A stretch of DNA of 34,570 nt from Kiritimatiellia bacterium (GTDB lineage: Bacteria > Verrucomicrobiota > Kiritimatiellia > RFP12 > UBA1067). The notes beneath the pieces are model-generated. The model was not told where the DNA came from. It saw only the letters and a list, made by a program, of their open reading frames with translations, and did no database searches. A program made the translations under genes and the position numbers. Shown here piece after piece: positions 2,710-28,517 of the stretch; position 1 is the stretch's first letter, and every line of letters begins with the position of its first letter. The stretch is from NCBI GenBank assembly GCA_045220525.1, contig JBGUVV010000338.1:1-34570 (forward strand), written 5' to 3'.

Positions 2710-3339
2710 TCAGCGCACGTGCCGCTTCGCGCGGTATTTCATCCCGGACATCGCCTGTCGATACACGAAATCGGCCATTGACTCACCCCACGCCTCCGCA
2801 TCTGCGTCTGCGGGGCGAAAGAGCGGATTCCACGAAGAATCCCTCAGCACACTGGCGCAAAGCTGCGACCATATCGAGTCGGCCCAGCGATACTGCTCGC
2901 GAACGTCATCGACTGCCATCGCAATGAGCCGCAGTAGGCTGTTCTGCACAGGGACGACATACCGTTCGCGCACAAGATTGCACATCGGGGACGGGTTGAC
3001 CATCTCCTGGCGGAAGAAACCCGCCGGAATGGCAGTGCCGCCCTTCGTAGCCAGCAATGCGCGCGAAACGCCGAATATCCAGCCGCGCACTGCCTCGCGC
3101 CAAGAACGCGCGTCAGACACGGCCGCGTCGATTCTGCAGAGCTCATCGCCCGTGTTCTCGTGGAAAAGCCGCTCCACGCACGCCTGGTAAAGCCCGTTCT
3201 TGTTGCGGAAGTAATAGTTGACCAAGGCGACGTTGACATTCGCCGCCTTGCATATCTCCCGCACGGTCACGAGCCTGAGGCCCTTCTCGGCGAAGAGCCT
3301 CATGGCAACGGCCATTATGCTGTCATTTGTCGCATCCAT
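2710..3339 (-). CDS. TetR/AcrR-family transcriptional regulator
   Basis: The N-terminal HTH signature AVAMRLFAEKGLRLVTVREICKAANVNVALVNYYFRNKNGLY is classic TetR_N. It lies directly upstream of the efflux genes. Confidence 0.9.
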   Translation of the reverse strand: MDATNDSIMAVAMRLFAEKGLRLVTVREICKAANVNVALVNYYFRNKNGLYQACVERLFHENTGDELCRIDAAVSDARSWREAVRGWIFGVSRALLATKGGTAIPAGFFRQEMVNPSPMCNLVRERYVVPVQNSLLRLIAMAVDDVREQYRWADSIWSQLCASVLRDSSWNPLFRPADADAEAWGESMADFVYRQAMSGMKYRAKRHVR

Positions 3340-11257: not shown

Positions 11258-12142
11258 CTACCTGTTTAAGAACTGAATCAAGAGCGGTGCGAAGAGGACT
11301 ATGAATATGCCCGGAAGGATCAGCAGGAGGAGCGGGAACGACATGTTCACCACAGCCTTCTGCGCCCGGGCCTGCGCCTTGACGCGTGCGGAGTGGCGGA
11401 TGAGCGAGGCGGCGCTCCTGAGGTTGTCGGCGACGGACGTGCCCATCTCAAGGGACTGCGCAAGAGTCGAAAAGACCGCATTGGCCTCGTTGGTGCCCAC
11501 GCGCGAGGCAATGTTGTTGAGCGCCTGCGCGAGCGACGTGCCTATCGCGACCTCGGCGATGGCGCGGGAGAGCTCGTCTCGCACGGGGCCCTTCGCCGTC
11601 ACGTCGATGACGGCCCTGATGGCGGAAAGCAGGTCTCCGCCGGACTGCGCGACGAGCCTCATCACGTCGAGGGAGCCTGGAAGGTCGCGCGTAAAGCGCC
11701 TCGCGCGGTCCTGCGCCGCCGCCTTCAATGACGACTCGGGGTAGGCATAGAGCAGCACCGCGAACGCAACCGCAATGAATAGCGCCGCCGCGCCGGAAAG
11801 GCCCAGCAAGGCGCACAGCGGCACGATCACCGCGAAACCCAGCACGGGGAATACGAAGCGAGCCGCGAACACTTCCTCCGCCGTCGCGCCCTCCATGAAC
11901 ACTCCGCCCGCCTGCGTGACGAGCTTCTCTATCCTCTGGACCGCCTTGTCCATCTCGTGGTCGGTTTCGCGGCGCCGCGCCACGACGAGAGCCGGCAGGG
12001 CGAGGAGAGCCCTCAGCGCCGACCCGCCCTCGCGCATGCCGCGAGACGCGCCGAGCGTTTCCCTTGCGAGGATGAACGAGAGCGCCGCCGCCGAGACGGC
12101 GGAACAGGACAGCGCCACAACCATGTCAATGTCCAAGCCCAT
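11258..12142 (-). CDS. tadC: Tad platform protein TadC-like (T2SS-F domain)
   Basis: The T2SSF-type segment LPGSLDVMRLVAQSGGDLLSAIRAV...GTSLAQALNNIASRV and a C-terminal TM are typical of TadC/CpaH. It lies 4 nt after the tadB stop. Confidence 0.85.
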   Translation of the reverse strand: MGLDIDMVVALSCSAVSAAALSFILARETLGASRGMREGGSALRALLALPALVVARRRETDHEMDKAVQRIEKLVTQAGGVFMEGATAEEVFAARFVFPVLGFAVIVPLCALLGLSGAAALFIAVAFAVLLYAYPESSLKAAAQDRARRFTRDLPGSLDVMRLVAQSGGDLLSAIRAVIDVTAKGPVRDELSRAIAEVAIGTSLAQALNNIASRVGTNEANAVFSTLAQSLEMGTSVADNLRSAASLIRHSARVKAQARAQKAVVNMSFPLLLLILPGIFIVLFAPLLIQFLNR

Positions 12143-12146
12143 GCCG

Positions 12147-12884
12147 CTACACCCTTATGTCGACGATCTTGCGGATCCAGAGGTACGCCACCCCCTGCAT
12201 CCCGAACAGCACCAGAAGCGTGGCAAGCCCCGCCCCGGTCGTGAAGAGCGGCGCGACGAGCTCGCGCCTGACGAGCCCGAGTATGAGCATGAGCGCCATC
12301 GGCAGGGCGCTCATCACGATCGCCTGCATGCGCCCTTCCGTCGTCATGGCCCTCAGCTCGTCCTCGAAGGCGAGGTTGTCCCTCAAGAGCGCCGAGAGCA
12401 TCCTGTAGCTCTCGGCGAGGTTTCCTCCGCGCGCGACGCCGATCTTCGAGGCGATGACGACCATCTGCACGTCGGAGATGGGAACGCGCCTTGCGAAGTT
12501 GTCGAACGCGCCGCCGATGGAGAAGCCGAGCTTCGTGTCGTAGATGATCCTCGCGAACTCCTCCGCCATCGTCTGCGGGAAGTGCTCGAGGTTGCGCATG
12601 AGCGCCTGCGGCAGGGTAAGCCCGGCTGTGAGCGAGTTCGCCGCCATGTCGAGCGCGTCCGGCAGCTCCGCGCGAACCTTCGCCGCGCGCCGCGCGCGCA
12701 TCCGAACCGCGATGAACTCCGGCATGGCCGAGCCGGCGCCCGCGCGCGCCGCGCGCGCCATCAAGTCGTCGCCGTCGCCGCCATTCGCCTTTTCCGCCGC
12801 GTCAAGGCAGCCCTTCACCGCGATTCCGACGAGAACCGCGAGCGCCGCTATGGCGGCAAAGGCCAGCAATAGGTCGAGCGTCAT
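12147..12884 (-). CDS. tadB: Tad platform protein TadB-like (T2SS-F domain)
   Basis: The track ORF 12147..13676 is over-extended into cpaF. The ATG at 12884 (MTLDLLLAFAAIAALAVLV) forms an ATGA overlap with the cpaF stop. LPDALDMAANSLTAGLTLPQAL is the T2SSF motif. Confidence 0.85.
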   Translation of the reverse strand: MTLDLLLAFAAIAALAVLVGIAVKGCLDAAEKANGGDGDDLMARAARAGAGSAMPEFIAVRMRARRAAKVRAELPDALDMAANSLTAGLTLPQALMRNLEHFPQTMAEEFARIIYDTKLGFSIGGAFDNFARRVPISDVQMVVIASKIGVARGGNLAESYRMLSALLRDNLAFEDELRAMTTEGRMQAIVMSALPMALMLILGLVRRELVAPLFTTGAGLATLLVLFGMQGVAYLWIRKIVDIRV

Positions 12885-14479
12885 GACACCCCCGCGAATA
12901 TCGACTCGTCGAGCGGCACGCCCCTGAGCCGGAAGTCCTCGAAGAACGTTGGCCTTGCGACGACGACATGGCGCCCGAGCACCTTGCGCGTCTCGGGGTC
13001 GACGCCCTCGCGCTTGAACTCGAAAAGCGTCCTCAGCTTTGCATTGCCGTGCTCGTCGAGCCCGCAGACCTCGGCGATCTCTATCGTCTTGCGCGAGCCG
13101 TCGGAGAGCCGTGCGGTCTGCACGATGATCGACACCGCGCTCGCGATCTGCGCACGGATGGCCGAAAGCGGCATGTCCATGCCGGCCATGAGGCACAGCG
13201 TCTCGAGACGCGAGACCGTGTCGCTCGGCGTGTTGGCGTGCACCGTCGTGAGCGAGCCGTCGTGGCCCGTGTTCATCGCCTGTAGCATGTCGAGGGCCTC
13301 GCCGCCACGGCATTCGCCGACGACGATGCGGTCGGGCCTCATTCGCAGGCAGTTCTTCACGAGATGGCGTATCGAGACCTCGCCCTTGCCCTCGGCGTTC
13401 GCGGGGCGCGCCTCCATCCTTACGACATGGCTCTGCTGGAGCTTGAGCTCGAGCGAGTCCTCGACGGTGATGATGCGCTCCGTCGGGCCGATGCAGAGCG
13501 AGATCGCGTTCAGGAGCGACGTCTTTCCGGAGCCCGTGCCGCCGGAGACGACGATGTTCTTCCTCAGCGCGACGCACGCGTCGATGAACTTCATCATCTC
13601 GGGGCTCATCGACCCGAACGAGACGAGCTTGTCGAGCGTGAAGAGCGACTTTCCGAACTTTCGTATCGTCAGGCACGCGCCGTCGGGCGTGATCGGCGGG
13701 ATCACGGCGTTGACGCGCGAGCCGTCGACAAGGCGCGCGTCCACAAGCGGGCTCGACTCGTCGATGCGGCGGCCGACCTTGTTGACGATGCGCTCGATGA
13801 CGCGTATGAGGTGGCCGGGGTCGCGGAAGTGGCGGTCGGTCAACGCCACCTTGCCCTTGCGCTCGACGTAGATGTGGCGGTAGTCGATCACCATTATCTC
13901 GGTGATGGAGTCGTCGGCGATGAGCGGCTCGAGCGGCCCGAGGCGCAGCATGTCCTCGATCGTCTCGCGCTTGAGCTCCTCGACTACGCCCTTCTCGAGT
14001 CCTGCGAGCTCGGCCGTCCCGCGCGCGATCAGCTCGTCGAGGAACGACCCGATGCGCACCTCAAGTTCGCGCTCGTCGTCGGAGGTCGAGCTCGAGAGGT
14101 TGCGCGAGAGACTCGCGAGCGCATGCGAGTAGAGGATGTCGGAAGCCACCTCGCGGCGGCTCTTCCTGCCCTCCGACGCCTCGCACGAGACGTCGAACTC
14201 GAACGAGGCGACCTTGACGTGCGCCCCGGAGACGACGGGATCGGCGGCCGTCGCACGCCCGTTGACCTCGAGCCGCCCGTCGGCGGCCATGTCGCCGACC
14301 CACCAGACGCTGCCCATCGGCGAGAACGACACCTGCTGCGGCGCAAGGCCGAACTCCGCCGAGACGACGATGTCGCAGCTCGGGGCCGAGCCGAGCGTGA
14401 ACACCTCGCCTTGCTTCCCCTCCTGCGGGCTCAGAGTGGCTATGCGCTTGCCGTTCTGCGTGAATATGAGAGGTTTCAT
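12881..14479 (-). CDS. cpaF: CpaF/TadA-type secretion ATPase with an N-terminal FHA-like domain
   Basis: Walker A is GGTGSGKTS, and RPDRIVVGECRGGEALDMLQAMNTGHDGSLTTVHAN is the CpaF signature. The first ~100 aa (FTLGSAPSCDIVV...DGRLEVNGR...VSGAHVKVASFEFDV) have an FHA-like pattern. Confidence 0.92.
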   Translation of the reverse strand: MKPLIFTQNGKRIATLSPQEGKQGEVFTLGSAPSCDIVVSAEFGLAPQQVSFSPMGSVWWVGDMAADGRLEVNGRATAADPVVSGAHVKVASFEFDVSCEASEGRKSRREVASDILYSHALASLSRNLSSSTSDDERELEVRIGSFLDELIARGTAELAGLEKGVVEELKRETIEDMLRLGPLEPLIADDSITEIMVIDYRHIYVERKGKVALTDRHFRDPGHLIRVIERIVNKVGRRIDESSPLVDARLVDGSRVNAVIPPITPDGACLTIRKFGKSLFTLDKLVSFGSMSPEMMKFIDACVALRKNIVVSGGTGSGKTSLLNAISLCIGPTERIITVEDSLELKLQQSHVVRMEARPANAEGKGEVSIRHLVKNCLRMRPDRIVVGECRGGEALDMLQAMNTGHDGSLTTVHANTPSDTVSRLETLCLMAGMDMPLSAIRAQIASAVSIIVQTARLSDGSRKTIEIAEVCGLDEHGNAKLRTLFEFKREGVDPETRKVLGRHVVVARPTFFEDFRLRGVPLDESIFAGVS

Positions 14480-14494
14480 CGCTGCCCTTCCGTA

Positions 14495-15949
14495 TTACGG
14501 CATCTCGACTTCGACCTTGCGGCCCTTGAGCTCCCTGAACTGCTCCGCGTCGGCTCCCGCTTCGCCCTCAAGCGCCCAGTTCACGGTCACGACGAGCATC
14601 ATCTCGTCCATGTCGACGTTCGTCGACGTGTTGCCGAAGAGATACGGCCCGACCCACGGAATATGGGAAAGCCACGGGGTTCCGGTCTTCCCCTCGCTCT
14701 CCTTCTTGCTAGTAAAGCCAGAGAGGATTATCGACTCGCCGGGGCGCAGCAGGTATTTCGAGTTCGTCTGGTAGCGGGATACCTTGTAGTCCTTTGTGCC
14801 TGTCTCGGTGCCGAGATACTCCTTGTTGTCGAGGTTCAGGTCGAGGTTTATCGTGTTGGAGTCCACGATGAACGGCGTCGCCTTTACGGTGTAGCCGTAT
14901 TCTATCTCCTTCACGTCGCCGGAGCTCAGGGCCCCGCCCGTCGTCTCCTTGTATATCTTGCCGCCGTTCTGGAACGTGGCCTCCACGCCCGACTGCGTCG
15001 AGAGAGCCGTCGAATACGCCGTCTTGGCCGCTCCGTTGCTCTTGAGCATGTTGATCGTCGCGCTGATTTCCGCGTTGGCCCCTATGCTGGCCCCTATGTC
15101 GCCGGTGCCGGTGTTCTTGATTTCCTCGGTGCGCGTGCCGTTGTTTACGTTGTTCACGTACTCGGTCTTCCACTTAAGCTTCCCGTTGATGGCGTCGGGG
15201 CCCCTGAAGCCGAGGTTGCGCGACATCTTGTCGTTGTACTGGACGAGCTCGACGCCGATCATTATCTTCTGCTTTATGATCTTGAGGTCGTCGGTGTTTA
15301 CGGTGATGCCGGGGAAGTCCCTGACGAAGCCCTCCACGCGCTTCCTGAGCTGGTCTATCGCCTGCGCGTCGTACATGCGCCCCGAGAGGCACACCTCGCG
15401 CCCGACGACCTTGACGGATATGCTGTTCGTCATCCCGGCGCGGACGAGGAAATCCTTGACGAGGTCGCATATCTGCGCCGTCGAGTACGTGACCTGCGAG
15501 ACTATGCGCGTCTGGTCGAGGTTCTTCACGCTCTCTGCGCGCTTGAGGGTGTCGATGTTCGCAGTCGCGCCCGAGACTACTATCTTGTCGCCAGCTATCG
15601 AGATCGAGACCTCGGGGTCGTCGGCGAACATCTTGTTCAGGAGCTCCCAGTACGGAGGCACGACCATCACGTTGCGCGTCGCGAACACGCCGCGCTCGTC
15701 GTCGACATAGGCGAAGACCGCCTCGCCGAGGCGAGTCCCCGACACTATCGCCTCGCCGGACTCGCGCAGCGCGGCGGAGAAGACGGCGGAGTTGGAACTT
15801 CTCACCGACGTCGCCTTGAGAGAGTCGAACGACAGCGTCTCGCCCTCGACGACGGTAACGTCGGGCATCTTGCGGACGACCGCCGCCTGCGCCGCGAACG
15901 CGGCGAACACGGCCAAGGCCGCAAACGTTTTCAGCTTTGAGTCAGTCAT
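14495..15949 (-). CDS. cpaC: Tad secretin (CpaC/RcpA family)
   Basis: The C-terminal secretin motif is TPWLSHIPWVGPYLFGNTSTNVDMDEMMLVVTVNW. It also has an N-terminal pilus-assembly N-domain pattern and a signal peptide (FAALAVFAAFAAQA). The start is chosen at ATG 15949 (AAAGGA RBS); the alternative is 15967. Confidence 0.9.
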   Translation of the reverse strand: MTDSKLKTFAALAVFAAFAAQAAVVRKMPDVTVVEGETLSFDSLKATSVRSSNSAVFSAALRESGEAIVSGTRLGEAVFAYVDDERGVFATRNVMVVPPYWELLNKMFADDPEVSISIAGDKIVVSGATANIDTLKRAESVKNLDQTRIVSQVTYSTAQICDLVKDFLVRAGMTNSISVKVVGREVCLSGRMYDAQAIDQLRKRVEGFVRDFPGITVNTDDLKIIKQKIMIGVELVQYNDKMSRNLGFRGPDAINGKLKWKTEYVNNVNNGTRTEEIKNTGTGDIGASIGANAEISATINMLKSNGAAKTAYSTALSTQSGVEATFQNGGKIYKETTGGALSSGDVKEIEYGYTVKATPFIVDSNTINLDLNLDNKEYLGTETGTKDYKVSRYQTNSKYLLRPGESIILSGFTSKKESEGKTGTPWLSHIPWVGPYLFGNTSTNVDMDEMMLVVTVNWALEGEAGADAEQFRELKGRKVEVEMP

Positions 15950-15981
15950 TACAATCCTTTCATCCATTCATCATTGTAGAT

Positions 15982-16791
15982 TCAGTTCTGAAACGCCCTG
16001 ACCGTGTCGCCAAACGACACGCCGGGAGCGACCGTCACGTTTATGCGGTCCTGCTCGGTCTTAGTGTCGCGCACGTTCCTGAGGAGATAGGTGATCTGGC
16101 CCATCGTCCGCGCCTGCACCATCATGATCGCCGCCTTGGTGGGCAGCGCGAGCGTCATGGTGCCGTAGCCGGACGGGTTCGCCTCGAGGTCGTATTCGCG
16201 GTCGGCGGCGAGCACCGGGACGTTCTGGAGGATCACGCTCGAGACGACGCGTGCGCCGGCCGCCTGCGCAGCCTGGCCGACGACAAGGCCAAGCTTGTCC
16301 TCGGAGGCCGTTAGCACCACGTCGATGCGGCTTCCCGGGCGGATGAACCCGCAGACGGAGCTGACGGAGTCGACAGGCACGGTGACCGCGCGGCAGCCGT
16401 CGGGGATGAGGTCGGCGAACGGAGCCTTCTTGGCGGTCTCGATGTCGATCCAGAAGAGCGGGGTGTTCGCCGCGACGAGGCGCTTCGCCTTGCGCTTGAC
16501 GACCTTTTCGAGGACGTCGGCGAACGCCTTCTGGAATTCGGGCGAGCCCTTTGCGGGCAGGGCGATATGCATGTTGGATAGCGACTCGAACGGTATCTCG
16601 GCCGAGCCGAGCATCTCCTCGCCTATCTCCGAGCCCTCCTTTATCTCCATCGTCGCCACGAGGATGGACGCCTTCGGCGACGGCGGCACCGCTGTTTGCC
16701 GGGATATGTACTTGTTCACGGCCACTACCGCGAACAGGCCTACCAAAACCGCCGCGACTGCAGCGAGCTTTGTGTGGTTGTCAGTCTTCAT
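15982..16791 (-). CDS. cpaB: Flp pilus assembly protein CpaB/RcpC-like (SAF domain)
   Basis: N-terminal TM, then ILVATMEIKEGSEIGEEML (SAF-like) and the RcpC-like region VTVPVDSVSSVCGFIRPGSRIDVVL. AAGGAAAGGA RBS. Confidence 0.85.
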   Translation of the reverse strand: MKTDNHTKLAAVAAVLVGLFAVVAVNKYISRQTAVPPSPKASILVATMEIKEGSEIGEEMLGSAEIPFESLSNMHIALPAKGSPEFQKAFADVLEKVVKRKAKRLVAANTPLFWIDIETAKKAPFADLIPDGCRAVTVPVDSVSSVCGFIRPGSRIDVVLTASEDKLGLVVGQAAQAAGARVVSSVILQNVPVLAADREYDLEANPSGYGTMTLALPTKAAIMMVQARTMGQITYLLRNVRDTKTEQDRINVTVAPGVSFGDTVRAFQN

Positions 16792-17662
16792 CTTGGTTTC
16801 CTTTCCTTTGAATGTAAACTTCGTCGTCGGTGAAGCGGTAGTTGACGTCGCATCCGCCGCCCTCGCGCTGAACAGCCTCGTAGTAGAGGGTCAGGTTGTC
16901 CTTCGTCCAGCTCGCCGCGCCGCGGGGGCTGGACTTCTCGCCCTCGCCGGGGATCGCGCCAAACAGGCTCTCGCGCCAGCCGGCCTCTCGCGCGGCGGAC
17001 GACACCTTCCGCCGCGCCTCCAGCGCGGAGACGTCCGCCACGCAGTGGACGATAAGCGCCGCGCCCGCCCCTCTCTCGACGAGGTGGACGAGCAACGGGC
17101 TCCCGACCACTACATTGCGCAGGACCGGCGGCATCAGCTCCTTCACGCGCGCCGCGCTCCGCCGAGCGAGGTCGTCCGGCGTGACGACCTCCCCCGCCGT
17201 AGGCACGAGCTCCGCCGGTATCACGAAATCCTCCAGCAGCGTGTCGTTCCCCGCTATGGGCCTCAGCTCCCTGAGGGCGATCGACCCCTCCGGCGTCTTG
17301 TACACGCGCTCCATGCCGGAGAGGTTGCCTATCGTCAGGGCGTTCTCGTCGTCAAGACGCTCCCAACCGGCGCTCGCAGCCTTCTCCTCCGCAACGTCCG
17401 CCGCGAGGGAATACGGGATCCCAAGCCGTTCCGCGCGGCGGCGGACGGAAAGGCCCGCGATGTTGACGTGAAGCTCCTCCGGCACCATCTCGGCGAGCGA
17501 GTGCGCCCTCGGCGCTGGCACGACCGGCATCTCGACGGACCCGACGTCGCGCTCCGCGCGGTAGGCGCGGGTCATCGCGGCGCGGATCGTCCAGCGCACG
17601 GCCATGACCGCGGCGACGGCCACGGCCAGGGAAAGCGCCGTTCTCGCTATCTTGCCCTTCAT
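16781..17662 (-). CDS. Hypothetical N-terminally anchored protein (293 aa) between the pseudopilin genes and cpaB
   Basis: The track ORF 16781..17815 is over-extended. The ATG at 17662 (MKGKIARTALSLAVAVAAVMAV) overlaps the upstream stop by 1 nt (TGATG). I recognise no family. Confidence 0.65.
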   Translation of the reverse strand: MKGKIARTALSLAVAVAAVMAVRWTIRAAMTRAYRAERDVGSVEMPVVPAPRAHSLAEMVPEELHVNIAGLSVRRRAERLGIPYSLAADVAEEKAASAGWERLDDENALTIGNLSGMERVYKTPEGSIALRELRPIAGNDTLLEDFVIPAELVPTAGEVVTPDDLARRSAARVKELMPPVLRNVVVGSPLLVHLVERGAGAALIVHCVADVSALEARRKVSSAAREAGWRESLFGAIPGEGEKSSPRGAASWTKDNLTLYYEAVQREGGGCDVNYRFTDDEVYIQRKGNQDED

Positions 17663-18456
17663 CAGTTGACGAGCCCTTTCAGGAGCGGCTGCTTCGCGCA
17701 CCACGCCTTGAACTTCCGCACATACGTCTGCGGCGCGACGGGGACGGAGTCTATTACCGGCATGTAGCAATAGACGCGGTGGCGCTTGGAGGTATTCAGC
17801 TTCGAGCCGCTCCACGCGGCAGACGCGTGGCCATACTCGACGTCGTAGGCGAACTGCCCGACGCCTATGCGGCCGCCGCGCCTCTCGGGGAGCGAGATCG
17901 CCGAGTACGCGCCCGCAGGGAGGATAGTGTCGATGTAGACTGCGGTGGAGACCGCGACCTCGCGGTCGTGCGGCGGCACGTCGACGATGTAGTTTATCGT
18001 ACGGAACGTGACGAAGTTCATGATGCCGCCGAATATCTTGCCTACGAGCTTCCAGAACACGCTGCCGTCAGAGAAGGCCTTGCCGTTGAAGAAGTCGGAT
18101 ATCAGCCCGGACACGTACGTAATGGGGTTGTTTATCCGCTTGCAGCTGCCCTTCATGTACACGGAGCCGACGTCGGTGGCTACTTGGGCCACCCGGACGA
18201 GGTACTCCTTGCCTACGTTCTTGGCGGCGGAGCTCGGCGACGCGCCGCTGCCGTAGTAGTCGGCCATGTGGGCCTCGACGTCGGCGGCGAGGCGCGTGGC
18301 GACCTCGAGCTGCTGCTCGGTGCGGAGGATGCGAGTGAAGTCGGCCGCGAAGACGGCGGTGACGGCGACAAGCGGCGCGACGAAGGCGAACTCGAGCATC
18401 ACGCTCGCGCGTTCGCCGAAAAGCCGCAGCATTATCCGTCTTGCCGTATGGTCCAC
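17662..18456 (-). CDS. TadE-like pseudopilin/minor pilin (264 aa)
   Basis: GTG start at 18456 with an AAGGAGA RBS 5 nt upstream. The N-terminal GERASVMLEFAFVAPLVAV matches the TadE motif. Confidence 0.8.
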   Translation of the reverse strand: MDHTARRIMLRLFGERASVMLEFAFVAPLVAVTAVFAADFTRILRTEQQLEVATRLAADVEAHMADYYGSGASPSSAAKNVGKEYLVRVAQVATDVGSVYMKGSCKRINNPITYVSGLISDFFNGKAFSDGSVFWKLVGKIFGGIMNFVTFRTINYIVDVPPHDREVAVSTAVYIDTILPAGAYSAISLPERRGGRIGVGQFAYDVEYGHASAAWSGSKLNTSKRHRVYCYMPVIDSVPVAPQTYVRKFKAWCAKQPLLKGLVN

Positions 18457-18480
18457 GATGTCTCCTTAGCCTGTCTGGGA

Positions 18481-18489
18481 ATTATACCA
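18481..18489 (-). promoter_or_regulatory. Possible internal extended -10 promoter element inside the Tad-like operon
   Basis: The minus strand reads TGgTATAAT in the 41-nt gap between the TadG-like and TadE-like genes. It matches the extended -10 of the pyrH promoter over the 11-nt string TATGGTATAAT. There is no good -35. Confidence 0.35.
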
Positions 18490-18497
18490 TAAAACCC

Positions 18498-19679
18498 CTA
18501 GTGGTAGATGATGGCGTCGACAACGTAGCCAAACGCCTTGGCCCCCTTGTAGGCCACCTCCGACACTGGAACGAGCTTCGCCGTCGCGCCCGTGCCGAAC
18601 CCCGCCGGACGCTGGTTCGTCTTGTCGTCCTCGCTCTTCTTCGAGTGCGGCACCACGTCGCCGGTGACGCACTGCGCCGCCGCCACGGCGAAAACCGGGA
18701 ACTTGTGGGTCGTGCGGGACTTGTCGCCGTCGTTCAGGAACGCGTCTATCGGCATCGTGTGGATGTTCCCCGCGAACTTGAAGGCGATCCACATCACCGG
18801 GGCGGGCAGCACGTCGTCGTCCGTGACCTTGCCGCCGTCCATCTTGAGCCCCTCCTGGCTGCCGCGCTTCGAGACGTATGGCACGATCTCCCACGCCTTC
18901 CCCGCGCCGGTAAAGCTGTATATCTGCTTCCACGGGGAGTTCGACGACTCGAACACGCTTATCTTGCCCGCCTTCCACGGCGACTTCTTGGAGTCGGACT
19001 TCTCCGACTTGTCCAGCGGCAGGAAGAAGATGTCCTTGATGTTGTGAAACGACATGGGTATTGCGTAGAGACCGAGGTTCCACGAGTCGCCGTACTGCGC
19101 GGACGACGAGGCGGTGCTGAGCGCCGCGAGTGGATCCGCCTCGTTCTGCGCGGCGAGCTGCTGCGCGTTCCACACCCCGAACCAGGAAGACCCCCACACG
19201 TAGGCTATCTGTATGTACTTGAGAAACCTGTTGCATATCCACGTCGCCATCCAGCCTGCGGTCCCGCCGGCGATCACCGATATCGTGTGCATGGCGATCG
19301 CGAGCCCCTTGAAGATGATGCCCACGAACGGCGCGTTCGAAGCCGCGTCGAAGCCAAGCGCGATCGGCTCCAGCACCTTGGCTATGTTGCGCAGCTTCAC
19401 GGCGAGGGAAAGCGCCTCGTACATCTCGTCGTTTATGTTCTGCACGGCGTTCATGCCGCGCGCCTGCCATACGGCGTGCGCGAGCGCGGCGGAGTCCGCC
19501 GCGTTCTGGAGGCGCATCTTGGCCTTCGAGAGCTGCGCGGTGTTCCACGTCATCGTCAGCATCCCCATGACGAGGAAGATGACGAGAGCCACGACGACGC
19601 CGACGCTGCCGCGCTCGGAGGCAAGGCGCTCCGCGAGCAACTTTCCCGTTCCCCGTTTCCAGCTCCCCGTCAGTTCCAT
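18498..19679 (-). CDS. TadG-like protein (Tad_N-type N-terminus), 393-395 aa
   Basis: ERGSVGVVVALVIFLVMGM...LQNAADSAALAHA matches the TadG/Tad N-terminal motif. The ATG at 19679 lies 9 nt from GGAGG; the alternative GTG is at 19685. Confidence 0.8.
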   Translation of the reverse strand: MELTGSWKRGTGKLLAERLASERGSVGVVVALVIFLVMGMLTMTWNTAQLSKAKMRLQNAADSAALAHAVWQARGMNAVQNINDEMYEALSLAVKLRNIAKVLEPIALGFDAASNAPFVGIIFKGLAIAMHTISVIAGGTAGWMATWICNRFLKYIQIAYVWGSSWFGVWNAQQLAAQNEADPLAALSTASSSAQYGDSWNLGLYAIPMSFHNIKDIFFLPLDKSEKSDSKKSPWKAGKISVFESSNSPWKQIYSFTGAGKAWEIVPYVSKRGSQEGLKMDGGKVTDDDVLPAPVMWIAFKFAGNIHTMPIDAFLNDGDKSRTTHKFPVFAVAAAQCVTGDVVPHSKKSEDDKTNQRPAGFGTGATAKLVPVSEVAYKGAKAFGYVVDAIIYH

Positions 19680-22249
19680 ATCCACTTGCCTCCCGAATAA
19701 GTCTGGCGGTCCTTGTCGATGATCTGGCCCGAGTCGCTGCCGGGGGCGAGGGAGCCCGGCGAGTCCTCGGGAACCCCGTCGGCCTCGTCAACTACCTGGT
19801 CGGGCGTCTTGCCTTCGCGCTTCGCCTTGCCGGCGCTCGAAAGGCCCATCATCGCGCCATACTCGACCTCCTTCTGATAGGCGTCGTTGAGCTTCTGCTG
19901 GTAGGCGTTCAGCCTTGCAAGCATGTCGCGCGTGCCCTTGCCGATGTCATAGGGCATGTAGCCCGCCGGGATCTTGAATCCGGAGTCGCGCTCCGGGTCA
20001 AGGACGCGCAAGCTCTTCGCGGCCCCGACCATCCTGAGGCACGCGCGCGGGAAATGGGATTGCACGCAACGGGCGCGCGCGTCCATGAAGCCCTTGGCCG
20101 CGTTCTGGTATGTCGTCCACTCGTTCCTGAGCGCCTCCGCGGCGGCGTCGATCTCCTTGAGCTTGGACTTGAGCTTGGACTTGAGGATGGCCCACTTCTC
20201 CCGCGCCCTCTTCGCGGCGGCGTCGGGATCCTTCATCACCTCCTCGTCGGCGGGGTCGAACACGGGGTCGGTGTCGTCTCCGGTCCAGGACGACGTGCCG
20301 TGCTCCATGTTCTCGATGTCGGCGATTTCGTCCCTGACCAGCTTCGTGATGACGGCGAACGAGCCCTCGGCCTTCTTCGCCTTGTCCTGGATCTCGGCGT
20401 CCTGCTCCTTCCACGCCTCGAGGTCATGGCCCTCCTGCCACTTCACGAGGTTGTACACGTTCACCTTGTTGCGGTCGGCGAAGGCGCACACCTTTGCGTA
20501 GAGCGTCGATCTGTTGGCCTGCATGACGAAGACCCTCTGGTCGGACGGAACGGACGGATCGGCGACAAACTCGGCCACGCACGAGTTGAACACGGCCTGA
20601 TTGGCCAGGTATTTATTGCTGTAGCCGTTGATCGAGCTGTCCTTGTAGGCCAGCACCTTGCCCTGCCAGCCGTCGTACCAGGCGGCGAGGCCCGCGTTCC
20701 CGCTCGCGCTGCAGATGCTCTGGTGGTAGCTCTTGTGGTAGGAGCCGTCCCAGTGGAAGTAGTCGCGGTTGTGGTAGCTGTAGCCGCTGAAGTAGCCTTT
20801 TTCGTTAAGCGTGCTCGCCTTGGTGTCCTGGTCCCTGCCGTCGGTAAGCGCGCTCCAGCACCTCCCGTAGTCGCCGCCCACCGGGTAGCTGTCGCCGTCT
20901 TTCTCGTTGAATGACCACAGGTCCTTCAGCTCGGGAACGTACTTCCACCAGGTGGCGGACGCCACGTGGTACTTGCCGTCCCTGAACGACAGCGACTCGG
21001 TGCATATCCTGAACTTCATGCAGAACTTCACGTACTTGAGGTAGTCCTTCATCTCCTTGGCTATCTCGTCCAGCGCGGGGATCGACGTGCGGTTCGTGTA
21101 GGCGCCCGGGTCGAACGCCTTGGCCCCCTGGGAGTAGAGGTGCTCGTTCTGTATGTCGGGCTGCGGGAACACCATGCTGTGGCCCGTCGCGACCGGCCTC
21201 TTCGAAGACGCGACGCCGCGGCCGGACACCACCGGGAAGAGCCAGCCCGACTCGTAAGGCCAGTTGACCTCCACGTGGGCCATCGCAAGTCCGCCGTAGT
21301 TCGCAGGCCATCCGTGCGCCCCGGTGACGAAGAACCCGTCGCTCTTAGCCTCCTTGTCGACGACCTGCGGATAGACGAGGCGGCCGAGCGCGGCAAGCTT
21401 GGCGAACATGAAGGGGCCGTTCAGGTCGTCCATGTCGGTCACCGTGACGACCTCCTTGCCGATGGTCGACTTGGCCCGGGCGATCCTCACCGCCGCGCCG
21501 TATATCTGGCGGGCCATGCGCGCGCCGCCGCTCTTTCCGCTGAAAATCTCGTCGACCTTGATCCCGCCCTTCCCGAAGACGTTGTCGAATGCCGACTGCA
21601 GCGCGCTCTTTATCGCCTCCGCGATGGGCTTGAGCGCGACTTCCACGACCTTGTCGACAAGGTACTTCACAAGCTCGCTTACGAACTTCTCTATGCCCGT
21701 CCCGCCGCCGCTGAACGGGATCTTTATGTCGGCGACGGCGTTCTTTATCGTTTCGGCGATTCCGTCGGTCATCCCCTTGACCACGGCGTTGATGAGCGCG
21801 TCGAAGCCGTCGGCGAGCGCCTTCCCCGGGCTCGACCCGTAGTAGCCAATCCCGCATGTGGACATCAGGAATAGAGTCGCGATGTTGCCGCGGTTGTTGA
21901 ACTTGTTGGCCCCCTGGATCGCAGTGTCGAGGCCCGAAAGCGCCGCCTTGAGAGGAGCGGGGAGGGAACTGCCGGCGATGCCGGTCTTGGACTTCTTTGA
22001 AATGCCGCTTGAGTATTCGAGGCCGTCCGAGCCTCGCACCATGACGATGCGCCCGACCGTCCAGGCGGCGTGGTTCGCCATCACCTGCGCGTCCCAGAAG
22101 CCCACGATCTCGACAAGCGCGCTGCAGACGAGCACCAGGATCGGCGCGATGAGCGCGAACTCGGAAAACACCGACGCGCGAGGGGAGCCAAGTCTCCGCT
22201 TCGCGCGCTCAACTCGCTTGCCGTCGTTCCTCGTCAGCCACCGAAGCAC
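19670..22249 (-). CDS. Giant TadE-like protein (859 aa)
   Basis: GTG start at 22249, 9 nt after GGAG. The N-terminus RRLGSPRASVFSEFALIAPILVLV is a TadE motif. The remaining ~800 aa match no family I recognise: an aromatic/His-rich middle and a charged helical C-terminal third with a KSKLKSKLK repeat. Confidence 0.8.
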   Translation of the reverse strand: MLRWLTRNDGKRVERAKRRLGSPRASVFSEFALIAPILVLVCSALVEIVGFWDAQVMANHAAWTVGRIVMVRGSDGLEYSSGISKKSKTGIAGSSLPAPLKAALSGLDTAIQGANKFNNRGNIATLFLMSTCGIGYYGSSPGKALADGFDALINAVVKGMTDGIAETIKNAVADIKIPFSGGGTGIEKFVSELVKYLVDKVVEVALKPIAEAIKSALQSAFDNVFGKGGIKVDEIFSGKSGGARMARQIYGAAVRIARAKSTIGKEVVTVTDMDDLNGPFMFAKLAALGRLVYPQVVDKEAKSDGFFVTGAHGWPANYGGLAMAHVEVNWPYESGWLFPVVSGRGVASSKRPVATGHSMVFPQPDIQNEHLYSQGAKAFDPGAYTNRTSIPALDEIAKEMKDYLKYVKFCMKFRICTESLSFRDGKYHVASATWWKYVPELKDLWSFNEKDGDSYPVGGDYGRCWSALTDGRDQDTKASTLNEKGYFSGYSYHNRDYFHWDGSYHKSYHQSICSASGNAGLAAWYDGWQGKVLAYKDSSINGYSNKYLANQAVFNSCVAEFVADPSVPSDQRVFVMQANRSTLYAKVCAFADRNKVNVYNLVKWQEGHDLEAWKEQDAEIQDKAKKAEGSFAVITKLVRDEIADIENMEHGTSSWTGDDTDPVFDPADEEVMKDPDAAAKRAREKWAILKSKLKSKLKEIDAAAEALRNEWTTYQNAAKGFMDARARCVQSHFPRACLRMVGAAKSLRVLDPERDSGFKIPAGYMPYDIGKGTRDMLARLNAYQQKLNDAYQKEVEYGAMMGLSSAGKAKREGKTPDQVVDEADGVPEDSPGSLAPGSDSGQIIDKDRQTYSGGKWIWN

Positions 22250-22252
22250 GGC

Positions 22253-22747
22253 TTAGAACTCCTGGACGAAGACGGCTATAAGAGTGCCCAGGGTGATTGC
22301 AAGAGCATACGGCACCATCGGGGGGTTGCGAAGCCCCCTCGTCTTGCGCGGCATCCCCGCCATGATGCGGAAGACGTTCGCAAGAGTCGTCAAAAGAACG
22401 CCGTTCCACGCCATGATGGCGATTGCTATGAGGCCGCCCGCGATGCAGGTGTTGCAGACGACCCTAAGGGCCATCGGCCAGCCGACAATCGCGCCGACAG
22501 CCGCCATGAGCTTCATGTCGCCGCCGCCCACGACGCCCAAAAGGCAAAACGGGAGGAACAGCCCCCCCGCTATCGCCAGTCCAAGCGCGGACTCCGCAAG
22601 GCCGTCCAGGCCGCCCTCGATGCCGGCCGCCCCCACGCCGAGGGCGATCGAGCCCAGCGTGAGCCAGTTCGGAATCCTCCTCTCGCGTATCTCGCCGTAG
22701 CAGGCGAAGGCGAGGATGAACGGCAGGGATATCCAGACGATGGGCAT
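22253..22747 (-). CDS. tadV: Type IV prepilin peptidase, A24 family (CpaA/TadV-like)
   Basis: 164 aa and polytopic, with a GEIRERRIPN motif and GGGDMKLMAA (second catalytic Asp motif). Start codon overlaps the upstream gene's TAA stop by one nucleotide (minus-strand TAATG). Confidence 0.85.
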   Translation of the reverse strand: MPIVWISLPFILAFACYGEIRERRIPNWLTLGSIALGVGAAGIEGGLDGLAESALGLAIAGGLFLPFCLLGVVGGGDMKLMAAVGAIVGWPMALRVVCNTCIAGGLIAIAIMAWNGVLLTTLANVFRIMAGMPRKTRGLRNPPMVPYALAITLGTLIAVFVQEF

Positions 22748-22932
22748 TAGAAAATGGGAAGCTTTATGAGCATTTCCCTGAAGGAATAGTCAAGCCCCAT
22801 CCCCTTGAAGAACCAGCCGTTCGGCGTCATCAGCGTGACGGCGGCGCCAAGCATGATGAACGAGACGAGCGCGTATTCGAGATACACGCTCGCCCGTTCG
22901 GACCCGAGCCGACGCTTGAGTCGCTTAAGCAC
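22747..22932 (-). CDS. Mini TadE-like protein (61 aa)
   Basis: GTG start. KRRLGSERASVYLEYALVSFIML is nearly the same leader/TadE motif as the 859-aa protein (KRRLGSPRASVFSEFALIAPIL). There is no obvious RBS, so it is coding by homology of motif only. Confidence 0.55.
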   Translation of the reverse strand: MLKRLKRRLGSERASVYLEYALVSFIMLGAAVTLMTPNGWFFKGMGLDYSFREMLIKLPIF

Positions 22933-23433: not shown

Positions 23434-23462
23434 ATTATATCAAAATCGCATATGACAGGCAA
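23434..23462 (-). promoter_or_regulatory. Putative sigma-70 promoter of the flp/Tad-like operon
   Basis: The minus strand reads TTGCCT (23462..23457), a 17-nt spacer, then TGaTATAAT (-10 hexamer 23439..23434), immediately downstream of the groEL terminator hairpin. Confidence 0.65.
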
Positions 23463-23464
23463 CA

Positions 23465-23492
23465 GGGGCTGCGGCCCAAAAGCCGCAGCCCC
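23465..23492 (-). terminator. Stem-loop terminator after groEL
   Basis: Perfect 11-bp GC-rich stem GGGGCTGCGGC / GCCGCAGCCCC with a 6-nt loop, 26 nt after the groEL stop. The trailing U-tract is weak (UGUUGCCUGU). Confidence 0.6.
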
Positions 23493-23517: not shown

Positions 23518-25149
<1,632 letters not shown>

Positions 25150-25181
25150 TTCTTTATTCTCCAATTCCTTTTGTTAGGGTT

Positions 25182-25203
25182 CGGGGAAGACTGGTCTTCC
25201 CCG
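25182..25203 (-). other. Intercistronic stem-loop between groES and groEL
   Basis: CGGGGAAGA-CTGG-TCTTCCCCG, a 9-bp perfect stem with a 4-nt loop, inside the 63-nt groES-groEL spacer (25150-25212). Confidence 0.6.
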
Positions 25204-25212
25204 TCCGTTCCA

Positions 25213-25500
25213 TTACTTCTCAATCACTCCGAGGAGGTCCTCTTCGCGGACGAGCTGGAGCTTCTTGTCGCCGAGCTTGACTTCGGTGCCGCCGTATTTC
25301 GGGAGCAGCACGGTGTCGCCCTTCTTGACGTCGAACGCAATCTCCTTGCCGTCCTTGTCGAGCTTCTTGCCGACAGCAAGAACCTTGCCCTGCATGGGCT
25401 TCTCTTTCGCGGAGTCGGGGATGATGATTCCTCCGACGGTCTGCTCCTTTTCCTCGATCGGCTCAATGAGAACGCGATCGCCGAGTGGTCTGATGTTCAT
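25213..25500 (-). CDS. groS: Co-chaperonin GroES (Cpn10)
   Basis: [44 protein letters not shown] is canonical GroES. Confidence 0.97.
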
Positions 25501-25556: not shown

Positions 25557-27509
25557 TTACTTCATCGTAAAGTCTGCGTCGACGACGTCGTCATTCCCCT
25601 TCGCGGCTTTGCCGGCTTCGGAGGACGAGCCGCCCTGCGATCCCGGCGGAGGCGTTCCCGCGCCGGGAGGAGGCGTGCCAGCGCCGCCCTGTGCGCCCTG
25701 CGCCGCCTGGGCGGAGGCGTACATCTCCTGCGCGACAGGCTCCATCGCCTTCATGAGCGCGTCCTCCTTCGCCTTGATGTCGGCGATCGGGGCCGGAGGC
25801 TGCTTCGCGAGCAGGTCCTTGAGTTCCTTGAGGGCGGCCTCGACAGGGGCCTTCTTGTCGGCGGCGATCTTGTCGCCGGACTCCCTCAGGGTCTTTTCGA
25901 CCTGGAAGGCGAGGCCGTCGGCCTTGTTGCGGGCCTCCACCTCCTCGTGGCGCCTCTCGTCCTCTGCCGCGTGGGCCTCGGCGTCCTTGCGCATCTTCTC
26001 GATCTCCTCCTTCGAGAGACCGCCAGCGGCGGTAATCGTGATCTTCTGCTCCTTCTGGGTGCCGAGATCCTTAGCGGAGACGTTGAGGATGCCGTTAGCG
26101 TCGATGTCGAACGTGACCTCGATCTGCGGAACGCCGCGCGGGGCGGGCGGGATGCCGTCGAGGTTGAAGTTGCCGAGCGCCTTGTTGTCGCGCGCCATCT
26201 TGCGGTCGCCCTGGAAGATCGCGATCGTGACGGCAGGCTGGTTGTCGGCAGCAGTCGAGAACACCTGGCTCTTCTTCGTCGGGATCGTAGTGTTGCGCTC
26301 GATGAGGGGCGTCATCACGCCGCCGAGGGTCTCGATGCCGAGCGTAAGCGGCGTCACGTCGAGGAGGAGGACGTCCTTCACCTCGCCCTTGAGGATGCCG
26401 CCCTGAATCGCCGCGCCCATGGCGACGACCTCGTCTGGGTTCACGCCCTTGTGGGGCTCCTTGCCGAAGTGCGACTTCGCCTTCTCCTGGATGAGCGGCA
26501 TGCGGGTCTGTCCGCCGACAAGCACGACTTCATCGACCGAAGAGAGCTCTGCGTCGGCAAGGCACTTGCGGCACGGATCGGACGTGCGGTTCACGAGGTC
26601 CATCGTGAGCGTCTCGAGCTTCTGCTTAGTGAGCGTCATCGCAAGGTGCTTCGGGCCATTCGCGTCCGCCGTGATGAACGGCAGGTTGATGTCGTAGGTG
26701 GTCGCGGTGGAAAGCGCGCACTTGGCCTTCTCCGCCTCTTCCTTGAGGCGCTGGAGCGCCATCATGTCGGAGCCGAGGTCGATCCCCTGCTGGGCCTTGA
26801 AGTCCTCGATCATCCACTTCATGATCGACTGGTCGAGGTCGTCGCCGCCGAGGTGCGTGTCGCCGTTGGTGGCCTTCACCTCGAAGACGCCGTCGCCGAT
26901 GTCGAGGACGGAGATATCGAACGTTCCGCCGCCGAAGTCATAGACCGCGATCTTCTCGTTTTTCTTCTTGTCGAGGCCGTAGGCGAGCGAAGCCGCAGTC
27001 GGCTCGTTCACGATGCGCTTCACGTCGAGACCGGCGATCTTGCCGGCGTCCTTCGTCGCCTGGCGCTGCTGGTCGTTGAAGTACGCGGGAACCGTGATGA
27101 CCGCCTCGGTGATCTTCTCGCCGAGGAACGACTCCGCGTCTTCCTTCAGCTTGCGGAGAACCATCGCGGAAATCTCCTGGGCCGTATAGACCTTGTCGTT
27201 CACCTTGACGGCCGCGTCACCGTTCGGCGCCGCGACGACTTCATAGGGAACCATCTTGATTTCATCTGTCATTTCGCTGAACCTGCGCCCGATGAACCTC
27301 TTGATGGAGTAAATTGTGGATTTCGGGTTCGTGACAGCCTGGCGCTTCGCCGCCTGGCCGACGAGAATCTCGCCTGTCTTCGTGAAAGCCACGATTGAAG
27401 GCGTGGTGCGGGCGCCTTCCTTGTTAGGTATTACCGTTGCCTCTCCGCCTTCCATTACAGCCATGCAGCTGTTGGTCGTGCCAAGATCAATTCCAAGAAC
27501 TTTTGCCAT
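25557..27509 (-). CDS. dnaK: Chaperone DnaK (Hsp70)
   Basis: [18 protein letters not shown]..., [12 protein letters not shown] and the other Hsp70 signatures. The start is at 27509 (GAGGA RBS); the track ORF is extended upstream via a GTG. The C-terminal tail has a duplicated GAGTPPP (42 nt at about 25644-25685). Confidence 0.98.
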
Positions 27510-27558
27510 TTTATTTTCCTCATCTTTCCATCGCCTACTGTGGCGACGAGAATTATAT

Positions 27559-27574
27559 TGCAAAAGGCGTGCCA
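27559..27574 (-). promoter_or_regulatory. Sigma-54-type -24/-12 promoter element upstream of dnaK
   Basis: The minus strand reads TGGCACGCCTTTTGCA, i.e. TGGCACG-N4-TTGCA, an exact match to the RpoN consensus (GG and GC separated by 10 nt). It lies 50-65 nt upstream of the dnaK ATG. Confidence 0.6.
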
Positions 27575-27624
27575 CGCCCTGAATGTGAGACACGTCCACT
27601 TAGAACCACCCGCCTAAAAGCAAA

Positions 27625-27656
27625 GTGGGACATCTTGTCGCGACAACATGTCCCAC
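27625..27656. promoter_or_regulatory. 32-bp near-perfect palindrome (candidate enhancer/operator) in the dnaK-nnrD divergent region
   Basis: GTGGGACATcTTGTCGCGACAAcATGTCCCAC: 15 of 16 pairs are complementary, with a single C/C mismatch. Its centre is about 75 nt upstream of the -24 element, and it abuts the putative nnrD -35. Confidence 0.6.
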
Positions 27657-27685
27657 TTTCAAGATGTTCGTGTTTTTGCTATACT
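27657..27685 (+). promoter_or_regulatory. Putative nnrD promoter (extended -10, leaderless-type spacing)
   Basis: TGcTATACT at 27677-27685 with a weak -35 (TTTCAA at 27657-27662, 17-nt spacer). Ten nt separate the -10 from the ATG at 27696, with no Shine-Dalgarno. Confidence 0.45.
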
Positions 27686-27695
27686 TCACTTTCAT

Positions 27696-28517
27696 ATGGA
27701 ACTACCCTCTTCTATCCTTAGCGCTTTCCCTAAAAGGGCATACGATGCGCACAAGTATTCTATCGGCACCATAGCGGTGATAGGAGGATCCGAGCGATTC
27801 GTCCACGCCCCCGTGATATGCGCCCTTGGGGCAAGGGCCGCGGGGGCGGGCCTTGTGCATCTCGTGGCGCCGAAAGAGTCGCTTGCCGCGGCAGGAGCAC
27901 TCGTGCCGGAGGCAACGTTCATGGAAAAGACTCTGTCGTTCATTCCGCCAAAGGCAGATGTCATTGCAATAGGCATGGGGCTTGGCGCTTCAAAGGCAAC
28001 ACAGGCGCTCGTTTCCAATACGCTCAAGGGGCCTTGCAAACGTTTTGTAATTGATGCCGACGGCCTCTTGGCGCTTCCCGAAGAGAACGCGGAAGACGCC
28101 GAAATCATCCTCACCCCGCACGAGGGCGAGGCAGCGAGACTCCTTGGCTGCGAATCCAGCGCCGTGCAAAAAGACCGAGCCGGGTCCGCCAAAAGGATTG
28201 CCGAGCGCTACCGCGCGATCTGCGTCCTCAAAGGGCCGCACACATTGGTTGCAGGGCCAGACGGACGCATGTTCACATGCGAGGCCGGGAACCCCTTCAT
28301 GGCAATGGGAGGGATGGGAGACCTTCTTTCAGGCGTCATTGCGGCGCGATGGGCATACATCAAGGATGCGTATCTCGCGGCCTGCTCGGCAACGTGGCTG
28401 CACGCAACAGCCTCAGACGCAATCGTCGGAGCGCAGGAGCCCGGCGACCCCTCCATCGTCAACACTGCGGCAAAGATAGGTTCGCTGAGGGTTGCGCTCG
28501 AGTCTCGCGCATCCTGA
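27696..28517 (+). CDS. nnrD: ADP-dependent (S)-NAD(P)H-hydrate dehydratase (YjeF C-terminal / carbohydrate-kinase domain)
   Basis: HKYSIGTIAVIGGS..., ITPHEGEAARLLG, VLKGPHTLVA and GNPFMAMGGMGDLLSGVIAA are the family motifs. The start is chosen at MELPSSIL (27696) rather than 27648, which lies inside the palindrome. Confidence 0.85.
   Translation: MELPSSILSAFPKRAYDAHKYSIGTIAVIGGSERFVHAPVICALGARAAGAGLVHLVAPKESLAAAGALVPEATFMEKTLSFIPPKADVIAIGMGLGASKATQALVSNTLKGPCKRFVIDADGLLALPEENAEDAEIILTPHEGEAARLLGCESSAVQKDRAGSAKRIAERYRAICVLKGPHTLVAGPDGRMFTCEAGNPFMAMGGMGDLLSGVIAARWAYIKDAYLAACSATWLHATASDAIVGAQEPGDPSIVNTAAKIGSLRVALESRAS

Follow-up and report, generated by a model that had tools for sequence, protein, structure and literature searches.

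Textbook control of bacterial heat-shock genes relies on sigma-32, HrcA/CIRCE or HspR, and the dnaK–groES–groEL operon found in 34,570 bp of DNA from a Kiritimatiellia bacterium (the whole stretch analysed, hereafter the window) raises the question of what drives transcription of its chaperones. An earlier note, made from the letters of the window, had proposed an RpoN (sigma-54) promoter in front of the operon. The DNA signatures of the textbook systems offer no ready answer: CIRCE (TTAGCACTC-N9-GAGTGCTAA) has no match with up to three mismatches in the whole window, the exact sigma-32 core TTGAA-N13-17-CCCAT (no mismatches allowed) has none in the window either, and the one match to HAIR (CTTGAGT-N7-ACTCAAG), at 22915 with three mismatches, is no more than chance would give and lies a long way from the operon promoter.

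The operon lies on the reverse strand and comprises dnaK (650 aa, 25557–27509; PF00012, E = 8.5e-260), groES (95 aa, 25213–25500; Cpn10) and groEL (548 aa, 23518–25164; Cpn60). The Shine–Dalgarno sequence of dnaK, GAGGAA, is located at 27516–27521 (−), and a purine-rich AGGA/GGAG block occupies the same place in relatives. The closest DnaK matches, at 86–92% identity, come from gut and rumen MAGs labelled, partly inconsistently, as Kiritimatiellia, Kiritimatiellae, Verrucomicrobia or Lentisphaerae.

Promoter element upstream of dnaK

The −24/−12 element TGGCACGCCTTTTGCA is positioned at 27559–27574 on the reverse strand, with its GG at 27573–27572 and its GC at 27561–27560. It agrees with the TGGCAC-N5-TTGCW consensus, the GG and GC being exactly 10 nt apart, and is the one exact match to TGGCACG-N4-TTGCW on both strands of the 34,570 bp, for which approximately 0.008 matches would be expected by chance (11 fixed bases plus one W, both strands, whole window). 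The exact consensus match that the earlier note had reported upstream of dnaK–groES–groEL is therefore real and the sole one in the window. Matches with up to two mismatches are no more frequent than chance predicts (3 seen, 5.1 expected in the window), so that only the exact match carries weight. Because positions 27300–27800 are identical, with 0 mismatches, in four independent DNA metagenome assemblies, the sequence is no assembly artefact.

From sigma-54 geometry, transcription is predicted to start at 27546–27550 (−), with +1 at approximately 27548, 12 nt past the −12 C (27560). The −12 C is 51 nt from the dnaK ATG (27509) and the predicted 5′ untranslated region (UTR) is approximately 39 nt long, in line with the start some 40 nt before the ATG that had been proposed. 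Directly downstream of the element is a TATAAT (27557–27552, −), which the earlier note had described as having neither a usable −35 nor a TG extension. The same picture emerged here: the hexamer has no −35, its TG is located 3 nt rather than 1 nt upstream, and no −35/−10 pair of the sigma-70 type was detected in 27400–27800.

Conservation across Kiritimatiellia

We compared 17 Kiritimatiellia dnaK–groES–groEL loci from a species-representative genome collection, with DnaK identities of 70–92%. The motif TGGCA[CT]-N5-NTGC[AT] was present upstream of dnaK in all 17 loci, as were the GG-N10-GC dinucleotides, and the conservation in orthologous intergenic regions on which the earlier proposal had been made to depend is thus complete in this set. 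The distance from the −12 C to the dnaK ATG was 48–57 nt in 13 loci and 72–76 nt in 4. When the 17 loci were anchored on the motif, information content was high only in TTGGCACG and TGCT, with the flanks near 0 bits. A TAnnnT hexamer was found in just 8 of the 17 loci, at variable offsets, and the TATAAT column was not conserved. Conservation falling on the GG/GC columns and not on the hexamer indicates selection on sigma-54 contact bases, not on TATAAT.

A position weight matrix (PWM) built from the 17 dnaK promoter sites and scanned over 214 kb separated these sites from all other sequence, the dnaK sites scoring 18–30.5 bits and everything else 17.7 bits or less. The best of the other sites, at 17.7 bits (L005:4507), falls within a ComEC-like ORF and was rejected, since a site of this score is expected by chance given how much sequence was scanned; the second best, at 17.5 bits, is positioned 43 nt before the clpB ATG in locus L002. 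Together, the sequence comparisons strongly support TGGCACGCCTTTTGCA as the sigma-54 promoter of dnaK–groES–groEL, as opposed to a sigma-70 promoter acting via TATAAT.

Candidate enhancer half-sites

Sigma-54 promoters are expected to be accompanied by an upstream activator sequence (UAS), and here one is found as a sequence feature only. The candidate is a 38-bp near-perfect palindrome at 27622–27659, centred at approximately −92 from the predicted +1, which on the plus strand reads TGGGACA (27626–27632), N3, TGTCGCGACA (27636–27645), N3 and TGTCCCA (27649–27655). An additional promoter-proximal half-site, GTGTCTCAC, is located at 27585–27593 (−), approximately −41 from +1, with the −24 element 11 nt downstream. 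The tripartite palindrome recurs in loci L002 and L003 with other central bases, and L001 and L004 carry a half-site at the same offset as GTGTCTCAC (−16/−17 from TGGCAC).

Clusters of TGTSNCA/TGNSACA half-sites occur upstream of dnaK in all Kiritimatiellia relatives. In the 17 regions of 300 nt upstream of dnaK we counted 68 half-sites, as compared with 63 in the remaining 208.7 kb; this corresponds to a density of 4.0 versus 0.09 per 300 nt, or approximately 44-fold enrichment, and every 150-nt window holding at least four half-sites lies upstream of dnaK. The half-site centres fall between −40 and −190, mostly between −50 and −130, from the predicted +1, and their spacings peak at 10 and 21–23 bp, revealing helical phasing. 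Judged on sequence, the array looks like the anatomy expected for an oligomeric enhancer-binding protein (bEBP), which would bind to it. The gene upstream of dnaK, in the window the divergent NAD(P)HX dehydratase gene nnrD, is not conserved, and because this neighbour varies, the promoter and half-site elements belong to the chaperone operon.

The two central bases of the half-sites are uniform within a genome but vary from one genome to another, the window having GGGACA, L002 and L010 GCGACA, L003 GTGACA, L009 and L012 GGCACA, and L007, L034 and L056 GACACA. This variation suggests either relaxed specificity or co-evolution with the DNA-binding domain of the activator.

Transcript boundary and 5′ hairpin

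In steady-state gut metatranscriptomes, two RNA contigs from two runs, X25 (224 nt, 0 mismatches) and X28 (440 nt, from a variant strain), both end at 27540, and no RNA contig covers the promoter and enhancer region upstream of this position. DNA contigs of similar depth cross the 27540 region uninterrupted. Strain-matched contigs reaching the 5′ UTR were obtained from 2 of the 8 RNA runs, the others yielding conserved dnaK fragments of other organisms that cross-map. Position 27540 is 8 nt inside the +1 predicted for sigma-54 (27548) and 12 nt after TATAAT; as a boundary defined by two low-depth assembled contigs, it fits any start within 27541–27550, including those expected for sigma-54 (approximately 27548) and for TATAAT (approximately 27545).

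The predicted mRNA begins with a 5′-terminal stem-loop, CGUCGCC-ACAGUA-GGCGAUG (27529–27548, −), with a folding energy of −11.7 kcal/mol and a z-score of −2.7, that leaves the Shine–Dalgarno sequence free. A hairpin is found at the same position in every relative (L001–L013 and L056) with a differing stem sequence, and compensatory double changes are seen at 6 of 6 predicted pairs among 10 relatives. A conserved hairpin that starts at the predicted +1 lends independent support to the start position. The stem-loop probably has a role at the RNA level, most likely protecting the 5′ end and stabilizing the transcript. We rejected two other interpretations of the leader. An RNA thermometer masking the Shine–Dalgarno sequence is at odds with the minimum free energy fold, which keeps both this sequence and the AUG unpaired, and the 22-nt inverted repeat I2 lies mostly upstream of the predicted +1. 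A CIRCE-like protein operator does not fit stems whose sequences differ among relatives with compensatory changes, a pattern that indicates RNA structure.

Operon extent and neighbouring genes

The gene order dnaK–groES–groEL is kept in all Kiritimatiellia loci. RNA contigs cover groES and groEL, one of them spanning nearly the whole groES–groEL spacer, and none bridges dnaK and groES. In the 56-nt dnaK–groES spacer we found neither a hairpin nor a promoter-like signal. Downstream of groEL, an 11-bp GC-rich hairpin (23465–23492, −), with a U tract so weak that the terminator scan missed it, is the likely end of the transcription unit. The three genes are probably co-transcribed. The groES–groEL spacer also contains a strong hairpin, GGGGAAG-ACCAGT-CTTCCCC (25183–25202, −), that has no U tract and could be a processing or stability element setting the GroES:GroEL ratio.

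In many other bacteria sigma-54 acts on pilus genes, and a complete Tad/Flp pilus cluster (11258–22747, −) is located directly downstream of groEL. Its genes code for an A24 prepilin peptidase, TadE-like proteins, RcpC/CpaB, a secretin, a CpaF-type ATPase and two TadB/C-like T2SSF proteins. At this cluster of the window we found no sigma-54 element; following the groEL hairpin it has a TG-extended promoter of the sigma-70 type, TTGCCT-17-TATAAT (23434–23462, −). On the other side of the operon, nnrD is preceded by a putative extended −10, TGcTATACT (27677–27685, +), and the −35 region of this putative promoter overlaps the right arm of the 38-bp palindrome. The nnrD start is probably the ATG at 27696 and not the listed one at 27648. 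The ATG at 27696 is only approximately 4 nt past the transcription start expected from TGcTATACT, and the mRNA would be near-leaderless.

A probable chaperone regulon beyond the window

The earlier note had suggested looking for the same element at other chaperone genes, clpB among them. It is present, with half-sites, at clpB of L002 and of L081, where half-sites are combined with TGGCATG-N4-CTGCT or GTGCT 43–49 nt before the ATG. On the metagenome contig L081, where ClpB shares 88% identity with the L002 protein, the half-sites ATGTCACA, CGTCACA and GTGTGACA are followed by TGGCATGTGATGTGCT 49 nt before the ATG. A sigma-54 proteostasis regulon would be expected to include several chaperone or protease genes, and the layout is found at dnaK–groES–groEL (17 loci) and at clpB (L002 and L081). 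A metagenome scan with ClpB yielded only two close relatives, L081 and the incomplete L082; the other 78 ClpB loci, approximately 60% identical and taxonomically mixed, have no sigma-54 element. The ClpB proteins of L002 (3710–5788) and L081 (6001–8079) are only 692 aa long and start at the point that corresponds to the end of the N-terminal substrate-binding domain in canonical ClpB, and an in-frame upstream extension is impossible.

We then searched approximately 1.7 Mb for the combination of a sigma-54-like element, at least two upstream half-sites and a downstream ORF. This returned 20 matches, of which 18 precede dnaK and 1 precedes clpB, the last being a weak match inside a dnaJ-like ORF. 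Half-site clusters with GG-N10-GC before dnaK were also identified in the Verrucomicrobiota loci L016, L020, L021, L025, L030, L032 and L070, as well as in L031; the Verrucomicrobiota loci with this layout belong to Chthoniobacterales, Pedosphaera, Spartobacteria and Verrucomicrobiales. Among distant dnaK upstream regions, a strict sigma-54 regular expression matched 10 of 62, as compared with approximately 0.45 expected from a background of 0.007 per 400 nt in the same loci; loci of FCPU426, Latescibacterota and Chitinivibrionales are among those matched. Outside the PVC superphylum, elements that fit the sigma-54 consensus well precede dnaK in FCPU426 (TGGCACGCCTATTGCT), Latescibacterota, Chitinivibrionales and several unclassified MAGs, at the approximate positions L028:5919, L049:2915, L051:5907, L015:5885, L024:3509 and L038:536. 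On these sequence matches, dnaK may be tied to sigma-54 in more phyla than have been reported to date.

Sigma-54 and its putative activator

Neither rpoN nor bEBP genes were found in the window or the Kiritimatiellia loci, which together cover approximately 214 kb of the lineage, and tblastn with Escherichia coli RpoN gave no match in the sequences searched. Six-frame scans of the window and 160 loci for GAFTGA, ESELFGH and the RpoN box returned only L068 and L141, which were set aside as they come from unrelated organisms whose chaperone genes have no sigma-54 element. Pfam scans of 30 window ORFs identified no regulator except a distant TetR (2710–3339). In supplement file 8 of a recent survey (PMC12316311), full-length sigma-54 proteins are recorded from several Opitutia as well as from Kiritimatiella glycovorans (L21SP4_02084), Tichowtungia aerotolerans (GT409_01040) and Akkermansia muciniphila (Amuc_0021). 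Since this file includes cultured Kiritimatiellota, rpoN is present in the class, and we infer that the genome studied here contains both rpoN and a bEBP. Our literature search returned no report linking Kiritimatiellia with sigma-54, and none that identifies a heat-shock bEBP of Bacteroidota or PVC bacteria or explains its stress sensing.

Weighing of alternative explanations

The earlier note had favoured RpoN over the TATAAT, and the comparative data side with it: GG-N10-GC is kept in 17 of 17 loci and TAnnnT in 8 of 17, an enhancer-like cluster lies upstream, and the layout recurs at clpB. It is hardly credible that TATAAT is the only real promoter and the sigma-54 match a coincidence. Such a reading could appeal to the perfect −10 hexamer and to the fact that rpoN of this genome is deduced from relatives, but it would leave unexplained why conservation falls on the GG/GC contacts and not on the hexamer, why an exact match expected approximately 0.008 times by chance is there at all, and why the element is kept in all 17 relatives, and it would have to do without a sigma-70 pair in 27400–27800. 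A dual arrangement, in which a functional sigma-54 promoter is supplemented by weak, strain-specific basal sigma-70 transcription from TATAAT 27557–27552, as in Chlamydia, has more to commend it, given that the hexamer is perfect, that essential chaperones need basal expression and that the RNA boundary at 27540 is compatible with either start. We nevertheless consider it unlikely, because the hexamer has no −35 and no correctly placed TG and is not conserved (TAnnnT in 8 of 17 loci, at variable offsets), and because A/T richness after the −12 GC belongs to the sigma-54 consensus itself.

A different objection concerns the half-sites and the palindrome, which might constitute a repressor operator or a control element of nnrD while the bEBP acts from solution, as the Chlamydia activator does. 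The overlap of the palindrome with the −35 of the putative nnrD promoter, the half-site only 11 nt away from the −24 element, a position suited to a repressor, and the failure to find a bEBP in the window or the loci searched are all compatible with this. We nonetheless regard it as improbable: the clusters are retained before dnaK and clpB even though no relative has nnrD as the neighbour, and in their position (−50 to −130), number and helical phasing they resemble typical bEBP enhancers.

Proposed mechanism

The elements described here, conserved and specific to chaperone genes as they are, and the RNA 5′ boundary are probably best explained by a dnaK–groES–groEL operon that is driven by a sigma-54 promoter together with an upstream-bound bEBP and in which this arrangement replaces the classical controls. 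We propose that RNA polymerase with sigma-54 would bind the −24 GG and −12 GC (27574–27559) as a closed complex, and that a putative AAA+ bEBP would assemble on the helically phased TGTSNCA/TGNSACA half-sites 40–130 bp upstream, which in the window would be the 38-bp palindrome (27622–27659) and the proximal site (27593–27585). ATP hydrolysis by the activator would then open the promoter, presumably in response to stress, and transcription would start near 27548. The resulting mRNA would carry the conserved, probably stabilizing stem-loop at its 5′ end and would probably extend through dnaK, groES and groEL to the hairpin at 23492–23465. In relatives, the same activator and sigma-54 would also drive clpB, forming a proteostasis regulon of the heat-shock type that may be common to Kiritimatiellia and at least several Verrucomicrobiota orders. 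At this operon, sigma-54/bEBP control would stand in for sigma-32, HrcA/CIRCE and HspR/HAIR.

DnaK and GroEL are required at all times, so that a sole activator-dependent promoter requires either constant basal activity of the activator or an undetected housekeeping promoter. A more far-reaching version of the proposal, which we put forward as conceivable but somewhat doubtful, is that Kiritimatiellota and Verrucomicrobiota replaced both sigma-32 and HrcA by one sigma-54 activator on the TGTSNCA enhancer that acts as the master sensor of folding stress. Such an activator might, for example, be partly held inactive by DnaK/GroEL and freed when unfolded proteins titrate them. Given the constant need for these chaperones, it would operate as a graded homeostatic loop and not as an on/off switch.

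Comparison with known systems

A parallel within the PVC superphylum is Chlamydia, where tandem sigma-66 and sigma-54 promoters precede the hrcA–grpE–dnaK operon. Both cases involve a PVC bacterium with a sigma-54 promoter before a dnaK-containing operon, but Chlamydia has kept HrcA/CIRCE and a sigma-66 promoter, whereas no CIRCE and no sigma-70 pair were found here. The chlamydial sigma-54 activator is not known to have a DNA-binding domain, whereas a conserved DNA enhancer, a candidate by its sequence, is evident here. Single stress or heat-shock genes are controlled by sigma-54 and a dedicated bEBP in Myxococcus xanthus (HsfA/HsfB–lonD) and in E. coli (ibpB and pspA). In these bacteria the genes concerned are accessory and the core chaperones are under sigma-32 or HrcA, whereas the operon studied here encodes the core dnaK–groESL set. 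With sigma-32, HrcA/CIRCE and HspR/HAIR the proposed circuit shares the targets and the principle that the chaperone genes have a regulator of their own; it differs in that their DNA signatures are absent here and in that enhancer activation would be ATP-dependent, in place of sigma replacement or de-repression.

The earlier note had called RpoN control of dnaK/groESL an unusual heat-shock circuit, which overstates the case in view of the precedents in Flavobacterium, Planctomycetota and Chlamydia. In Flavobacterium psychrophilum, 5′-end RNA sequencing placed the sigma-54 −24/−12 motif SM4 at groES–groEL, dnaK, grpE–dnaJ, htpG, clpB and lon (Guerin et al. 2021, PMC9723704). The two cases are alike in that sigma-54 serves as the sigma factor of a chaperone regulon and that the activator is named in neither. 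They differ in phylum, Bacteroidota there and Kiritimatiellota/Verrucomicrobiota here. In F. psychrophilum dnaK and groESL are separate units, as opposed to the single dnaK–groES–groEL operon of the window, and transcription start sites (TSSs) were mapped by experiment, as opposed to the start predicted here; the sections of that report consulted contain no description of an enhancer motif, whereas the TGTSNCA half-sites reported here were defined by comparison alone.

In a PSSM-based survey (PLoS One 2025, PMC12316311), the COGs of GroEL, GroES, DnaK, DnaJ, GrpE and IbpA are enriched for predicted sigma-54 promoters in Planctomycetota and Bacteroidota, the former belonging to the same PVC superphylum as Kiritimatiellia. 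Among the supplementary tables examined, the only one to include Kiritimatiellota is file 8, which lists sigma-54 proteins, and where the main text turns to Verrucomicrobiota it names sigma-54 motility genes in Opitutia only; enhancer or operon-level anatomy is not described in these parts of the survey. Reference 80 of that paper, cited there as experimental evidence that grpE and groES depend on sigma-54 in Bacteroides thetaiotaomicron and F. psychrophilum, is a report on the Blattabacterium genome and seems to have been cited in error; the mapped TSSs are in PMC9723704.

Significance

Evidence is growing that sigma-54 takes the place of the textbook controls in Bacteroidota and Planctomycetota, and the dnaK–groES–groEL circuit described here appears to extend this known pattern of sigma-54 chaperone control to another phylum. 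The extension would cover Kiritimatiellia and several Verrucomicrobiota orders, abundant bacteria of gut, rumen and soil that include relatives of Akkermansia. What is new relative to the earlier reports that we found is a conserved enhancer motif that is specific to chaperone genes and has a defined geometry. The motif, and the 38-bp palindrome in particular, provides a handle on the activator, as bait for DNA-affinity capture and as a starting point for footprinting and genome-wide regulon prediction. If a graded sigma-54 master-activator loop does operate in these bacteria, it would represent a mode of heat-shock control that has no characterized example. Sigma-54 control of chaperones would also help to explain why rpoN is retained in highly reduced symbionts of these phyla.
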